Assembly: GCA_030603365.1 (NCBI GenBank) | Contig: JAUVXV010000010.1 | Location: 79,925-143,924 of the forward strand | Source: Candidatus Heimdallarchaeota archaeon | GTDB lineage: Archaea > Asgardarchaeota > Heimdallarchaeia > Heimdallarchaeales > Heimdallarchaeaceae | Direction: 5' to 3' | Length of the DNA: 64,000 bases | Shown here: positions 29,544 to 35,196 of the stretch, piece by piece | Numbering within the stretch: the stretch's first letter is position 1 | Layout: every line of letters begins with the position of its first letter | Program-made: the position numbers and the translations under genes | Notes under the pieces: model-generated | The model's database searches: none | What the model was told of the DNA's origin: nothing | The model's input: the letters and a program-made list of their open reading frames with translations, nothing else

Positions 29544-30551
29544 ATGTCATTAAGAGGATTTATAGTTAGAAGAACCATTTATATTGTCCCTGTTATGCTA
29601 GGTATTACATTGATGAATTTTACTCTAATCAATGTAAGCCCAGGTGACCCGGTTGTTGTAAGAATAGGTCTGATTCATTGTGAATCACCGGAATGTTACA
29701 ACCAGGCGTATAACAAAGAAGCTATAGAAATGGGTCTCTTAGATCGTGAAATGTATACTGTTCCATGGTTTACTAGATATGTTGATTTCGTTAATGATTT
29801 ATTGCACTTTGATCTGGGGAATAGTTGGTATAATACTCAGGCGGGAGAGGGAATACCTATCGCGCAAATTATCTCAGAACGTGCAATATATACTATAACA
29901 CTCAATGTTATATCGTTTGTTTTATCGCTTTTACTGGCTACAGCAATAGGTGTAGTCTCTGCTACAAGACAAAATTCATTTTGGGACAGATCACTTACAA
30001 TAGCGATGCTACTAGGATACTCCATGCCACTGTTTTGGCTAGCTAAGCTTCTGATGTTATTATCGTTTAGCTTGTTTAATTTTACCGGAGTAGCCAACAA
30101 GGACGCTTTCAGAAAACCACTGTTTTTAAATCCAGCTTTCTATAAATATCTAATACTACCAACATTAGCACTAACTCTTGGTGGGTTAGTGTTCATGGCA
30201 AGATTGATTAGATCACAACTACTGGAGATTTTAAGACAAGATTACATTACAACGGCGAAAGCGAAAGGGTTGGATAATCGAGCGGTAATTTACAAACATG
30301 CATTCAGAAACGGGCTATTACCAATAGTTACAATCATTGGTAATTCACTACCTGGATTACTAGCAGGTTCAGTCATGATTGAAAGTGTTTTCGGATGGCC
30401 AGGATTAGGTACAGTATTCCTTGAAGGAGCTCTCTTTAGAGATTATCCTTTGATGATGGCAACTAACACGATATTTCCGCTGCTTTTTTTGATAGCGCGG
30501 TTACTTACGGATATCACGTACGTGTTTATTGACCCGAGGATTAAGTATTAG
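29544..30551 (+). CDS. oppB: Oligopeptide/dipeptide ABC permease B
   Basis: PGDP, DLG.S, EILRQDYITTAKAKGL, HAFRN, RDYP, IDPRI. Confidence 0.93.
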   Translation: MSLRGFIVRRTIYIVPVMLGITLMNFTLINVSPGDPVVVRIGLIHCESPECYNQAYNKEAIEMGLLDREMYTVPWFTRYVDFVNDLLHFDLGNSWYNTQAGEGIPIAQIISERAIYTITLNVISFVLSLLLATAIGVVSATRQNSFWDRSLTIAMLLGYSMPLFWLAKLLMLLSFSLFNFTGVANKDAFRKPLFLNPAFYKYLILPTLALTLGGLVFMARLIRSQLLEILRQDYITTAKAKGLDNRAVIYKHAFRNGLLPIVTIIGNSLPGLLAGSVMIESVFGWPGLGTVFLEGALFRDYPLMMATNTIFPLLFLIARLLTDITYVFIDPRIKY

Positions 30552-30562
30552 AGGTGTAAAGT

Positions 30563-31624
30563 GTGGCAACTGTAGACAGAGAAGAAAGAGAAGAATTTCT
30601 ACTTGATGAGAAGACATTAAGAGAAATCGATACAATGAAAGGAGCTGGACAATGGTCAATTGTTTGGCGCCGTATTAAGAAAGACAAGATGGGTATGCTT
30701 GGTCTTTACATCGTCCTATTTTTAATTCTGATGGCTTTTACATCATGGATACTGCTATCATTCGACCAATTTTTAACAGACAGAGACATTCTTTTTGGAG
30801 ACCCCAACAACTCTATCAGTTTGAATAACTTATATGTCGAACTGTGGGTGCCGGGTATGCCTAAAGAGAATCCCATTGTCTTATTCAACCATCCTAGATA
30901 TCAATTCGCAGATCAAGCCAAATTACCTCCATCATTTGAACATCCCTTTGGAACTGATAGAAATGGACAAGACATGTTATCCAGAGTTTTCTTTGGAGCA
31001 ACCGTTTCATTAGCCCTTGGGTTTTTAGGTCAGATGACGACAGTAATTATTGGTACATTCTTAGGAGCGATAGCTGGATTTTATGGTGGTTTAATCGACG
31101 AAGTTCTGCAAAGAATTATCGAAATACTATATTCAATGCCTGGATTCATATTGATGATCTTCATCATTGTGCTATTCGAAGACGTGAATATACCGGGTGG
31201 GCGGTACGCGGTTGTAGTTATCTTCTTCTCCCTAATCGGATGGGGAGGCACGGCGTTGATCGTGCGGTCGAACTTCTTCTCGCTGAAACAGCAAGATTTT
31301 GTGGAAGCGGAAAAAGCGCTAGGAGCGAGCGACATGAGGATTATCTTCAAACATATACTACCGAACTCACTAGCACCACTGATTATTATCGTAACGCTTG
31401 GAATTGCGGGAACGATTTTCCTATTTGCGGCGTTGGCATTCTTCGGTTTCGGAGATCCAAATGCAGTAAGTTGGGGAGACGATCTCAACAAGTGGCAAAA
31501 CGATTTAATCGAATATCCGTGGATGCCGATGTTTCCGGCTCTATTTATATTCTTCACGGTGTTAGGCTTTAATCTACTCGGTGATTCCCTCAGGGACGCA
31601 TTAGACCCAAGACTGAAGGATTAA
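30563..31624 (+). CDS. oppC: Oligopeptide/dipeptide ABC permease C
   Basis: HPFGTD.NGQD, FVEA..ALGA, HILPN, GDSLRDALDPR. Confidence 0.93.
   Translation: MATVDREEREEFLLDEKTLREIDTMKGAGQWSIVWRRIKKDKMGMLGLYIVLFLILMAFTSWILLSFDQFLTDRDILFGDPNNSISLNNLYVELWVPGMPKENPIVLFNHPRYQFADQAKLPPSFEHPFGTDRNGQDMLSRVFFGATVSLALGFLGQMTTVIIGTFLGAIAGFYGGLIDEVLQRIIEILYSMPGFILMIFIIVLFEDVNIPGGRYAVVVIFFSLIGWGGTALIVRSNFFSLKQQDFVEAEKALGASDMRIIFKHILPNSLAPLIIIVTLGIAGTIFLFAALAFFGFGDPNAVSWGDDLNKWQNDLIEYPWMPMFPALFIFFTVLGFNLLGDSLRDALDPRLKD
31177..31598. other. CpG-rich island inside oppC
   Basis: 35 CG dinucleotides hand-counted in about 420 bp versus 4 in an equal stretch of gdhA (37081-37500). Confidence 0.85.
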
Positions 31625-31943
31625 TATCCCTTCTTTCAAACCTTTTTTCTCATTTTATTTTTATTTCATGAGACAATTTTGTTGACATTTAAACTAAAAA
31701 CTGCAAACTAGCTGCAGCGATATTTACCTAGTTTATTAATTAATTTGAGAATTAAAGGTTGATAAGCTTCTGCTTATCTTTGTTTAGTCGCAAATCTTGT
31801 AGAATGGGTGTAGATAAGAAAGGGAGGGAGTCACCACCACCTATTCCATTTGATTGCCTGCTCTATTGGTTTCTTTCTTCTCTATAGGTAAAAAATTCTT
31901 TTGACTATATAAACCAAAGTCCCTATTATTCAGTGAGGAAGAA

Positions 31944-32729
31944 ATGACCACTATCATAGACAATGTGCAACTGCAACCCCTCGTTAACAGTTTGCGAGAA
32001 CTGCATTCCCCCCTCTTTCTTGTTAATGGAAAGTTGGAACACATAAACAGAAGTTCAGACCAAAGGCATGTTTTTAGGTTTGTTGAGATTATTGCCAGCC
32101 TGACTAAACATACCATTTCTGAGAATATCTTTACTGAAGCTTTTCTCCAGTTTCAATATTTGAATGATCTTCTACAGGAAAGTCACTCTAATGATATGAG
32201 TTTCAATAATGATGATATGCTAGCATATTTTCTGGCGATGTTAGATACAACACTGACCATCCATGGTAAAGAACTACAAATGAAGCACATTCACAGAATT
32301 TTGAAATTCTGGGGAGTTGATAAAGACTTAGATGTTTTTTCTAGAAAGCTCACACAAGCAAAAACCATTCTAGACAACGCTGGTCTTCTTCGAGACAATA
32401 GTAGGAAATGTACCGAAGAGCTCCTTTCGAAAGCTAATTTGTTATTCAGTTATCTCAAAGACATTTTCCCACACCAAACTTATCAGCTAGAACAGATTTT
32501 TGAACGTATTGAAATACTTGTTCAAAAGAAAATTCTCCCATATGCTAGTATTAGTAATGCAGCTCTAATCATGATAGTGTCGTTTTTCCCCTTATATTTA
32601 GAAATGCCAGCTGTTAAGCTATGTATTATGCTTCAGCTGAAAAAAGATTTGAATATAAATCTCACAAATCTAAAGAAGGATGTGGAAAGATTCCAGAACA
32701 AACTAGAGAAATATGATATGTTGAAGTGA
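31944..32729 (+). CDS. Hypothetical all-helical protein, possibly divergent TFB/cyclin-fold core without Zn ribbon
   Basis: Two helical repeats loosely alignable to TFIIB cyclin boxes. Confidence 0.45.
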   Translation: MTTIIDNVQLQPLVNSLRELHSPLFLVNGKLEHINRSSDQRHVFRFVEIIASLTKHTISENIFTEAFLQFQYLNDLLQESHSNDMSFNNDDMLAYFLAMLDTTLTIHGKELQMKHIHRILKFWGVDKDLDVFSRKLTQAKTILDNAGLLRDNSRKCTEELLSKANLLFSYLKDIFPHQTYQLEQIFERIEILVQKKILPYASISNAALIMIVSFFPLYLEMPAVKLCIMLQLKKDLNINLTNLKKDVERFQNKLEKYDMLK

Positions 32730-32904
32730 TATTTCTCAAGGTACTAAATGAAATCAAATAACTTATTTTTTCTGTTTAGGATTTTTTTCCCTAATGTCTA
32801 ATGTTTTTTTCAACTTCCGAGTAAAAATAGACAAACTTATAAAAGTTAGAAAAACACAATCAACAAAGTATCATAATTATTAGCTAATAAAATAAAGTGA
32901 TTCT

Positions 32905-33963
32905 ATGAGTAGACCCCCTGAAGATATACTTTTAGAGATTAATGGACTTAAGACTTACTTTTTTACAGAAGAGGGTGTAGTAAAAGCTATTGAGTCAGTA
33001 GATCTTGTAGTTTATAAATCTGAAACATTGGGCTTAGTTGGTGAATCAGGTTCAGGTAAATCAGTTACTGCTTTATCAATTCTGGGGATTGTTCCTGACC
33101 CTCCAGGTAAAGTCCTAAGTGGTGAAGTGATGTTTCATGGTCAAGATTTGCGACATCTAAGTGACTCTGATATGCGAAAAATCAGAGGAAATCAAATCGC
33201 AATGATCTTCCAAGATCCAATGACCAGTCTTAATCCAGTATTCACCGTTGGTGATCAAATCAGTGAGGCTATCATGCTTCATCAAAAAGTTACTAAAAAG
33301 GAAGCCAGAGAGAAATCTGTTAAAATTATGTCTCTTGTAGGTATTCCTAGTGCTGATGAGCGTGTAGATAATTATCCCTTTGAATTTTCAGGTGGAATGA
33401 GACAAAGAGTAATGATTGCTATGAGTTTAAGTTGTAATCCTGAGCTTTTGATTGCTGACGAACCTTCAACTTCATTAGATGTGACAATTCAAGCACAGAT
33501 TCTCGAACTCTTAAAAGCTACAAGCGAAGAGTTCGATATGAGTATTATTCTTATCACTCACGATATGGGTGTTATAGCTGAAATGTGTGACCGTGTAGCT
33601 GTAATGTATGCGGGTTTCATTTGCGAAATTGGTGATATTATGGTTATTTTCAAATCACCTTATCATCCTTATACACGAGGGTTACTAGGTGCAATTCCGC
33701 GACCTGATGCAGCAAGAGAAGATCTGACGATTATCAGAGGTTCGATTCCAAATCTTATCAATCCTCCATCTGCATGTAGATTCCATCCGAGATGTGATTA
33801 CATGATGCGAGGGTTGTGTGAGACGGTACTTCCTGGTTTAGTTGAGATAGAATCAGGTCACAGGGTAAGATGCCACCTTTATACAGAAGAAGGAAAAGCT
33901 TGGATGCAAGAACGTGGTGAGAAGAGAGAGATTGGCCATGTGCCAAAAGCAGCAGTTATCTAG
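32905..33963 (+). CDS. oppD: Oligopeptide ABC ATPase D
   Basis: GESGSGKS, FQDPMTSLNP, SGGMRQR, HPYT, CRFHPRC. Confidence 0.95.
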   Translation: MSRPPEDILLEINGLKTYFFTEEGVVKAIESVDLVVYKSETLGLVGESGSGKSVTALSILGIVPDPPGKVLSGEVMFHGQDLRHLSDSDMRKIRGNQIAMIFQDPMTSLNPVFTVGDQISEAIMLHQKVTKKEAREKSVKIMSLVGIPSADERVDNYPFEFSGGMRQRVMIAMSLSCNPELLIADEPSTSLDVTIQAQILELLKATSEEFDMSIILITHDMGVIAEMCDRVAVMYAGFICEIGDIMVIFKSPYHPYTRGLLGAIPRPDAAREDLTIIRGSIPNLINPPSACRFHPRCDYMMRGLCETVLPGLVEIESGHRVRCHLYTEEGKAWMQERGEKREIGHVPKAAVI

Positions 33964-35196
33964 GTGACAAAAATGGGTAGTTCAGAATCTTTAATAGAAA
34001 AAATCGCTTCCAAACAACAACAAAGAGGCCTGTTAGCCGATCGTATTAGAACTAAAGAAATGGAAGAAGATGTAATTTTAGAAGTTATCAATTTGAAAAA
34101 ATTCTTTGATATTCCTGTCCCCTTTGAAACCACTTGGTTTATGATTGCCTTTGTTGGTGCAATTGTTTTATTTGCATTTTACCAAGCTTATGGATTAATC
34201 GCGATTGGTGCAATCATCGTTTTGTACTTTGGTTTGCCTTATGTACCTCCATTCAACAAGAGACCCAGAGTAGCGCACCTTAAAGCGGTTGACGGGATTG
34301 ATCTTCGAATTAAAAAAGGTAGAATTGTAGGCTTGGTTGGTGAATCAGGTTGTGGTAAAAGTACAGCTGCAAAAACAATTATCAGGTTACATGAACCTAC
34401 AGCAGGTGCTGTTTATTTCAAGGGAATTGATATTAACCGTTTAACTTCTGAGGAAATGAAAGAAATCAGAAGACATCTGCAGATAGTATTTCAAGACCCA
34501 TATGCTTCATTAAACCCTCGAGCAACAGCACATGATATTATTATCGAACCTTTTGATATTCATGGAGTAGCTTCTGGAGATGAAGCCAGTTATCGAGTGC
34601 TTACACTTCTGAAAGATGTAGGACTTGCTCCACATCATGCATATCGTTATCCTCACGAATTTAGTGGGGGACAAAGACAGAGATTAGGGATTGCAAGAGC
34701 ATTAGCTTTAGAACCTGATTTCATTGTAATGGACGAACCAGTCTCAAACCTAGATGTATCAGTTCGAGCTGCTATTATTCAGCTAATTCTCGAACTTCAA
34801 AGAAAAATGGGTTTGACCTACTTATTCATTGCTCATGATTTATCTCTAGTTAAAATCCTCTGTGATGAGGTTAATGTAATGTATTTAGGAAAAATTATGG
34901 AAGCAGGAACTAGTGATGAAATCTTTGAGTCTATGATGCATCCTTATACCAAGGCTCTAATCTCAGCAGTACCTATTGCTGATCCTACCAAACGTTCAAA
35001 GAAAATCTTCCTTACTGGAGATATTCCAACTCCAATTAATCCCCCACCAGGATGCAAATTCCAAACAAGATGTCCTCTAGTATCGGATGTATGTCGTGTT
35101 GAGGAGCCCATAGCTAGATGGTATTCTGAGTCTCATGTCGCATACTGTCATAACATTGAAGGGGGCGAGGAAAATCCCGACTTCTTCATACAATAA
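33964..35196 (+). CDS. oppF: Oligopeptide ABC ATPase F with inserted TM hairpin
   Basis: GESGCGKS, FQDPYASLNP, SGGQRQR, HPYT, GCKFQTRC. Confidence 0.93.
   Translation: MTKMGSSESLIEKIASKQQQRGLLADRIRTKEMEEDVILEVINLKKFFDIPVPFETTWFMIAFVGAIVLFAFYQAYGLIAIGAIIVLYFGLPYVPPFNKRPRVAHLKAVDGIDLRIKKGRIVGLVGESGCGKSTAAKTIIRLHEPTAGAVYFKGIDINRLTSEEMKEIRRHLQIVFQDPYASLNPRATAHDIIIEPFDIHGVASGDEASYRVLTLLKDVGLAPHHAYRYPHEFSGGQRQRLGIARALALEPDFIVMDEPVSNLDVSVRAAIIQLILELQRKMGLTYLFIAHDLSLVKILCDEVNVMYLGKIMEAGTSDEIFESMMHPYTKALISAVPIADPTKRSKKIFLTGDIPTPINPPPGCKFQTRCPLVSDVCRVEEPIARWYSESHVAYCHNIEGGEENPDFFIQ

Follow-up and report, generated by a model that had tools for sequence, protein, structure and literature searches.

Why does the 3′ end of a peptide-permease gene concentrate CpG dinucleotides in a genome that otherwise depletes them? 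The question is raised by oppC, which lies next to oppB in a stretch of 64,000 nucleotides (nt), here called the window, from the Candidatus Heimdallarchaeota archaeon assembly GCA_030603365.1 (contig JAUVXV010000010.1, positions 79,925–143,924; C3:79925-143924 in our numbering of the 17 contigs). The genome, 3.65 Mb long and 89% complete, has a GC content of 0.333, a CpG observed/expected ratio (o/e) of 0.45 and a GpC o/e of 0.92, and CpG is under-represented in all 16 NCGN contexts (0.29–0.67; N, any nucleotide). The operon runs in the order ATP-binding cassette (ABC) ATPase gene, oppB, oppC, a gene without Pfam match at 31944–32729, oppD and oppF; OppC aligns to E. coli DppC (8z1v_B) with an E-value of 1e-43. 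We find that the CpGs belong to a tract of CpG-containing codons whose signal in oppBC follows the reading frame, the gene boundaries and the architecture of the proteins. The two genes and the main tract are the following:

29544..30551, + strand: oppB, ABC peptide permease subunit, 335 amino acids (aa), BPD_transp_1 domain (Pfam PF00528, E 5.8e-33)
30563..31624, + strand: oppC, ABC peptide permease subunit, 353 aa, OppC_N and BPD_transp_1 domains (Pfam PF12911, PF00528)
31163..31621, + strand: main tract of CpG and NCG codons, oppC codons ~201–353 (34–35 CpG vs 8.3 ± 2.6 expected)

The first-pass annotation of the window had counted 35 CpGs in 31177–31598 and reported smaller clusters near 30250–30315 and 30469–30537. 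These counts were reproduced exactly, the two smaller clusters holding 6 CpGs in 66 nt and 8 in 69 nt. Over 31177–31598, where GC is 0.476, the 35 CpGs stand against 23 GpCs, giving a CpG o/e of 1.48 and a GpC o/e of 0.97; GpC is not raised alike, and GC at third codon positions (GC3) alone does not explain the excess. Frames of 422 nt across the window carry 5.7 CpGs on average (sd 3.3; window-wide CpG o/e 0.48), and 400-bp frames across the genome carry 4.96 (sd 2.6). None of the 36,461 frames exceeds the one at the 3′ end of oppC, which has 33 CpGs; the runners-up are GC-rich regions only (0.52–0.56), rRNA-like in appearance. In a crude list of long open reading frames (ORFs, n = 2703), oppC holds the densest 100-codon window (26 CpGs; next ORF 19) and leads in the fraction of NCN codons that are NCG, 0.33 as compared with a median of 0.04; oppB ranks third with 0.26. 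The last 148 codons of oppC contain 34 CpGs, as against 8.3 ± 2.6 in simulations from genome codon usage (maximum 18 in 5000 runs) and 24.8 ± 3.7 in simulations matched for third-base frequencies (P ~0.01). The CpG clustering at the end of oppC is real, and it is stronger than that annotation stated.

Nineteen of the 34 tract CpGs lie at codon positions 2–3, 13 at positions 3–1, that is, at the junction of two codons, and two at positions 1–2, in line with the earlier remark that CpGs are favoured inside codons as well as between neighbouring ones. In the tract of this genome, GCG accounts for 8/13, CCG for 5/8 and ACG for 4/4 codons of their boxes, each being 4–5% genome-wide, and NCG codons together reach 0.63. 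When the 21 full-length orthologues of the genus are pooled, NCG rises ~7–10 fold, and the usage in tract and genome compares as follows:

NCG: tract 0.28–0.45, genome 0.04–0.05
CGG: tract 0.18, genome 0.02
GTG: tract 0.26, genome 0.11
NCC: tract 0.02–0.11, genome 0.06–0.11
GAG: tract 0.25, genome 0.22
CAG: tract 0.22, genome 0.23

AGG is raised together with NCG, CGG and GTG, and neither GTC (0.04) nor GGG (0.11) is. The rise of NCG without NCC, GAG and CAG agrees with the first-pass view that the tract does not simply stem from a high-GC donor. At four-fold sites, G amounts to 0.27 in the tract vs 0.08 in the genome, T to 0.25 vs 0.43 and C to 0.11 vs 0.09, with A unchanged, so the change is essentially a replacement of T by G. 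Genome-wide, NCG codons make up 4–5% of their boxes and CGG 2%; NCG usage falls to 0–3% in ribosomal-protein genes, indicating that NCG codons are not preferred for bulk expression. The tRNA genes with cytosine at anticodon position 34 (C34) that read NCG are present, namely tRNA-Ala(CGC), tRNA-Ser(CGA) and tRNA-Thr(CGU).

All 21 full-length orthologues are enriched, with 14–35 CpGs in the last 150 codons of oppC vs ~8 expected; these same-genus species are not independent samples, and the highest counts are those of the clade of this genome. Synteny around oppBC is conserved across the genus. In 12 of the same-genus orthologues, the CpG rise occupies the last 450 bp of oppC and also the end of oppB, and past the oppC stop codon CpG drops to the background level of 0–3 per 150 nt in 12/12 species. 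The stop is followed by:

31640..31667, + strand: oligo-T runs T6, T4 and T5 just past the oppC stop codon, likely an archaeal intrinsic terminator (read from the sequence)

Synonymous sites are near saturation in distant pairs of species, with an identity of 0.44 vs 0.385 expected from composition, and the excess synonymous identity is 0.09–0.165 in the tract vs 0.06–0.19 elsewhere in the gene. Conservation in at least 85% of species is seen at just two of the CpG-forming sites: TTC|G at Phe114 and the codon of Ala254, which is GCG in 90% of species. Polarised changes in the tract comprise 30 CpG gains vs 39 losses. In close species pairs, the synonymous divergence of the tract is 1.5–2.5 times that of the upstream part (0.23 vs 0.08; 0.27 vs 0.13), the pairwise distances of the two parts are congruent (r = 0.91), and the tract covers the most conserved protein segments (aa identity 0.92–0.98). 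The near-saturated sites, the near balance of gains and losses and the presence throughout the genus together indicate an actively maintained equilibrium with fast turnover and not a decaying relic: every member of the genus keeps its density of CpG codons far above the equilibrium level of the genome, and single synonymous sites turn over freely. The first-pass check of whether orthologues keep CpG at synonymous sites thus gives a yes for density (21/21) and a no for individual sites, which are no more conserved than elsewhere; the tract was found in every relative examined and hence is not the recent recombinant, absent from relatives, that had been considered as an alternative.

Along the two proteins, the enrichment is resolved into discrete peaks, one of which, in the first part of oppB, is absent from the first-pass annotation:

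31283..31372, + strand: strongest sub-peak, OppC cytoplasmic EAA coupling loop, codons 241–270 (pooled NCG/NCN 0.68–0.71)
31493..31582, + strand: C-terminal sub-peak, codons 311–340 of OppC, centred on its last transmembrane helix region (NCG/NCN 0.39–0.54)
30204..30293, + strand: CpG cluster of the oppB EAA loop, which takes in 30250–30315 (NCG/NCN 0.33–0.37, 25 sequences pooled)
30414..30548, + strand: C-terminal CpG cluster of oppB, which takes in 30469–30537 (NCG/NCN 0.38–0.77, CpG 8.0 per 100 nt, pooled genus)
29784..29873, + strand: extra conserved NCG peak in oppB, codons 81–110 (NCG/NCN 0.56–0.58, 25 sequences pooled)

In the pooled genus profile of oppC, NCG/NCN is 0.02 at codons 181–210, jumps to 0.62 at codon 201 and stands at 0.48–0.62 over codons 201–220. 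CpG density reaches 7.7–8.0 per 100 nt in the EAA loop (21 species pooled), and a dip at codons 281–300 (NCG/NCN 0.08–0.10) precedes the last-helix peak. The pooled peaks of oppB lie at codons 81–110, in its own EAA loop and in its C-terminal helix, where NCG/NCN is 0.49–0.77. OppB and OppC share the structurally equivalent places, EAA loop and last helix, at a local identity of only ~27%.

One residue of the OppC EAA loop (31313–31330) deserves separate mention. The position after the Glu is occupied by Lys (AAA) in 7 of 20 aligned species, including the clade of this genome, and by Arg in the other 13, always encoded by CGN (CGT, CGC or CGG) and never by AGR (R, purine), which makes up 74% of the Arg codons genome-wide.

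The operon neighbours of oppBC do not take part in the enrichment. Their NCG share in this genome is 0.08 for oppD, 0.04 for oppF, 0.02 for the upstream ATPase gene and 0.08 for the inserted gene, and genus-wide the four lie at 0.05–0.08; oppD is as conserved as oppBC or more so (86–93% aa identity), without a rise of NCG. As a side observation, oppD and oppF (32905–35196 and orthologues) lack the usual avoidance of a codon-final C before G (0.31 vs 0.33–0.37), and oppD carries 2.9 CpGs per 100 nt. Among the 2703 ORFs, the top NCG shares are those of oppC, an orphan oppB paralogue on another contig, oppB and then SecY, followed by mobile-element genes (TnpB, a resolvase) with a different signature, in which C at third positions is raised as well. 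Ranked by the NCG share of the last third, the 278 ORFs with at least five hydrophobic segments are headed by oppC (0.60), oppB (0.40), SecY (0.40) and the oppB paralogue (0.36). The secY gene (G000:C1:122117-123589, minus strand) rises to 0.40 in its last third from 0.07 earlier in the gene, and across the genus codons −190 to −60 of SecY show an NCG share of 0.33 vs 0.10 upstream, with junction CpG still avoided (0.15 vs 0.40). Since NCG is up in SecY while junction CpG is avoided, the feature common to OppB, OppC and SecY is the in-frame NCG codon and not the dinucleotide. A more distant oppC paralogue on contig C14 displays a weak version (NCG 0.25 vs 0.03).

Taken together, these data lead us to favor, tentatively and with a probability of roughly 0.4, a cluster of rare CpG codons that is specific to the lineage, conserved in position and selected at the level of codons in polytopic membrane proteins. 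The cluster is formed by GCG, CCG, ACG, TCG and CGG/CGN plus C-ending two-fold codons, apparently the rarest in this AT-rich genome, and lies over the EAA loops and C-terminal transmembrane segments of OppC and OppB, with a weaker, NCG-only version in SecY. We infer that selection may act on synonymous codon choice during the translation of these polytopic membrane proteins. Its likely mechanism is that little-used C34 tRNAs tune the local rate or fidelity of decoding, either by slowing it or by clean Watson-Crick decoding, and such tuning could affect co-translational membrane insertion, folding or OppB–OppC assembly.

Position-conserved clusters of synonymous rare codons are a described class (Chaney et al. 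2017, PMC5438181), among which polytopic membrane proteins are under-represented (PMC5438181). The oppBC tract resembles that class in being made of host-rare codons, in conserving a location inside a structural domain rather than exact sites, and in a positional conservation within the genus that goes beyond amino-acid content and overall GC3. It differs in using only the CpG-containing rare codons and not the equally rare NCC, so selection for rarity as such, with all rare synonymous codons taking part, is not what is observed. It differs also in the great length of the oppC tract, ~150 codons with sub-peaks, in its occurrence in polytopic membrane proteins and in a conservation limited to one genus. 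Clusters of rare codons were reportedly treated earlier by Clarke and Clark in 2008. Another precedent is the bldA/TTA paradigm of Streptomyces, in which rare codons depend on one specific tRNA. Like TTA, the codons enriched here are near-absent from the genome, concentrated in few genes and served by dedicated tRNA genes; unlike in that system, there are dozens of them per gene instead of one or two, and two further codons that C34 tRNAs read, GAG and CAG, show no enrichment in the tract.

Several observations weigh against a cause in translation. NCC is about as rare as NCG and yet is not enriched, so rarity alone fails to account for the codon choice, and TTC, AAC and ATC, usually efficient codons, are enriched as well. 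C-ending two-fold codons before G reach 0.56 in the oppC tract vs 0.14 in the genome, which looks like an effect at the dinucleotide level. Ribosomal-protein genes barely depart from genome-average codon usage, and translational selection thus appears weak. Membrane proteins overall display a small trend only, NCG going from 0.045 to 0.067 with hydropathy. In the equivalent region, the permease homologues from other families of the same order (40–45% identity) have a CpG o/e of 0.24–0.78 and an NCG share of 0.03–0.13, and the feature is absent from the homologues of the other CpG-poor organisms examined (among them Hydrothermarchaeota, Caldisericum, Clostridia, Spirochaetia). Because NCC is unused, efficient C-ending codons are enriched and junction avoidance is lifted in oppC, explanations by the dinucleotide itself and by gene conversion stay alive. 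There is also an appreciable, if minor, chance that the cause lies outside all those considered here.

A reading at the DNA or RNA level holds that the tract escapes a CpG-depleting process or serves a CpG-recognising protein, a methylation system or a nuclease, the coding sequence merely tolerating the CpG density. The oppC signal is indeed dinucleotide-specific, NCG and C|G junctions being both raised at a CpG o/e of 1.48 with GpC unchanged; species with Arg in the EAA loop invariably encode it by CGN, junction avoidance is missing from oppD and oppF too (0.31 vs 0.33–0.37), and the genome has one C5-cytosine methyltransferase. This explanation is nevertheless unlikely: enrichment halts at a stop codon, the peaks track protein architecture in two paralogous subunits, SecY raises in-frame NCG only with junction CpG still depleted, and the tract occupies the 3′ end of a gene, ahead of T-run terminators. 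Neither a specific CpG motif (CCG/CGG, palindromes) nor a helical or nucleosomal periodicity of 10–11 bp in CpG spacing was detected in the tract. The first-pass proposal of a second, DNA-level code gained no positive support, with the enrichment ending at the oppC stop in 12/12 species and the peaks following the protein. Of the methyltransferases or readers that it called for, the search returned a single C5-cytosine methyltransferase gene (G000:C14:308120-309046), a generic HaeIII-like enzyme whose best PDB matches are bacterial type II (3g7u, M.HaeIII), and CpG is depleted evenly, whatever the NCGN context; MBD, CXXC, SRA and Vsr domains were not found in this 89%-complete genome, the MBD and CXXC controls being silent too. 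By the Gardiner-Garden and Frommer definition of a CpG island (at least 200 bp, GC at least 0.5, CpG o/e at least 0.6), the length of 422 bp and the o/e of 1.48 suffice and the GC of 0.476 falls short. The tract shares with vertebrate-type islands, which are unmethylated and lie at promoters, an o/e of 1.48 over a CpG-depleted background of 0.45, an extent of several hundred bp and evolutionary maintenance. Unlike them, it is intragenic, frame- and gene-bounded and placed not at a promoter or transcription start but over the last 150 oppC codons, followed by the T6, T4 and T5 runs; no CpG methylation system or reader was detected (with the silent MBD and CXXC controls), and the enrichment exceeds mere escape from decay. 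We see only a slim chance that Heimdallarchaeia pair a genome-wide CpG-depleting process with a few actively maintained intragenic domains that are rich in CpG and lie in genes for membrane proteins (oppBC and secY among them). The dinucleotide would then be read at the DNA or RNA level, for instance by a methylation or repair system, by a factor that binds CpG or by a nuclease sensitive to it; if that were true, prokaryotes would have their own counterpart of CpG islands, here in the archaea most closely related to eukaryotes.

No function would be needed under mismatch repair or gene conversion biased toward CpG, in which heteroduplexes forming often in the conserved segments, together with T:G-to-C:G repair, would drive TpG/CpA alleles to CpG. 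The 1.5–2.5 times higher synonymous divergence of the tract in close pairs, the dominance of A<->G differences at its NCN codons (26/59), its location in the protein segments of highest conservation (aa identity 0.92–0.98) and the contigs of several metagenome-assembled genomes (MAGs) that end inside the oppC and SecY tracts all fit this process, and a locally raised GC3 with faster synonymous turnover is also what GC-biased conversion tracts display. We consider it quite improbable on the following grounds. NCA, from which NCG would arise directly, shows no depletion, and NCT does; NCC and GTC do not rise, contrary to the prediction of a bias from weak (A/T) to strong (G/C) bases, and the strand-symmetric shift at silent sites that defines GC-biased conversion is not seen, G being up and C not. 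Soluble genes conserved to the same degree are unaffected, oppD having no NCG rise at 86–93% aa identity; tract and upstream distances are congruent (r = 0.91), SecY junction CpGs are not raised, and no conversion was found between the two oppB paralogues (no identical stretches; nt identity 0.78). The origin of the tract from foreign DNA, as an unameliorated remnant of a CpG-rich donor with, for instance, Bacillota-like codon usage, is already largely refuted and hardly credible. High NCG with low NCC resembles the Bacillus-type usage, the nearest homologues outside the genus are distant (38–50% identity) and include Bacillota, and other CpG-rich ORFs of the genome belong to mobile elements (TnpB and a resolvase, for example). 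The feature is, however, present in 21/21 genus orthologues with conserved synteny, its synonymous sites are near saturation (0.44 vs 0.385 expected in distant pairs) and its CpG gains about equal its losses (30 vs 39). Moreover, the operon neighbours are compositionally normal, the mobile genes do not show the four-fold signature of the tract, with more G, less T and steady C and A, and the core gene SecY shares the signature of the tract. The marks of a horizontal-transfer island, namely atypical composition of the whole unit, patchy presence and decay toward the host, are lacking.

Other candidate causes were tried and rejected. The tract overlies an antisense frame that might be taken for a gene:

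31081..31557, − strand: antisense ORF of 158 aa beneath the tract, judged not to be a gene (no Pfam match)

This frame is open in nearly all orthologues as a by-product of the OppC sequence. Stops in it are possible only at Tyr, His or Gln codons that follow a pyrimidine-ending codon, and each of the six candidate sites is preceded by a codon that ends in a purine (Arg AGR/CGG, Lys, Gln, Trp, Glu), which keeps the frame open. The +2 ORF of the same strand is not conserved, and the tract has no excess synonymous conservation that would reveal an overlapping gene or an embedded RNA. Minimum free energy z-scores of the tract (−0.2 to −2.3, from synonymous shuffles) match those of the upstream control (−1.0 to −2.7), alifold on 20 orthologues gave a consensus of −2.9 kcal/mol with 0 compensatory pairs, and an Rfam search of the tract returned no match, leading us to reject RNA structure. 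Compensation for purine loading is negligible, and a general preference for C34 tRNAs or G-ending codons is rejected because GAG and CAG are not raised. A property intrinsic to the OppC family is ruled out by its absence from other CpG-poor lineages and other Heimdall families. A general effect of membrane proteins or hydropathy is likewise rejected, the genome-wide trend being tiny and the link with position in the gene negligible. Oligo-T is avoided on the sense strand inside genes: genome-wide, there are 1199 T runs of at least 6 and 4462 A runs, and TTTTTT serves for 19% of Phe-Phe pairs, where 41% would be expected. This avoidance is consistent with oligo-T being an archaeal termination signal. 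As a cause of the tract it was rejected: it covers part of the TTC use but not NCG, NCT not being specially avoided before T.

The tract is a natural case in which synonymous sites are saturated between species and regional codon and dinucleotide composition is held far from the genomic equilibrium, with a strong effect, about four times the expected CpG count, that puts it first among all windows of the genome. A cause in translation would point to a biogenesis of ABC permeases and SecY that is programmed by codons in this Asgard archaeon, and would give the under-used C34 tRNAs a role. If the cause lies in the dinucleotide, it would bear on the rise of CpG depletion and of CpG-rich domains before eukaryotes. 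Annotation of MAGs can take tracts of this kind for foreign DNA or for hidden genes, and contig breaks may coincide with them.

In independent assemblies, MAG contigs end in or at the edge of the CpG-rich tracts, at oppC residues ~262–332 in five cases (G009, G010, G012, G015 and G023) and at ~265–280 of the secY tract in three (G012, G017 and G018). Strain microdiversity is one candidate cause. In one case the two pieces overlap by 83 nt; that this stretch is common to co-assembled species and caused the break is unsupported, both contigs being pieces of one genome. The orphan oppB paralogue (G000:C11:118482-119489; NCG 0.27) shares 87% aa and 78% nt identity with the oppB of the window and adjoins no recognisable oppC, ATPase or binding-protein gene. 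The spacer between oppC and oppD (31625–32904 in the window; loci L020-L044) varies from ~0.36 kb in L037 and L038, which are without the inserted gene, to 1.2–1.6 kb. The Pfam-less gene that it houses evolves fast, with 46–62% identity among species vs 80–95% for the flanking opp genes.

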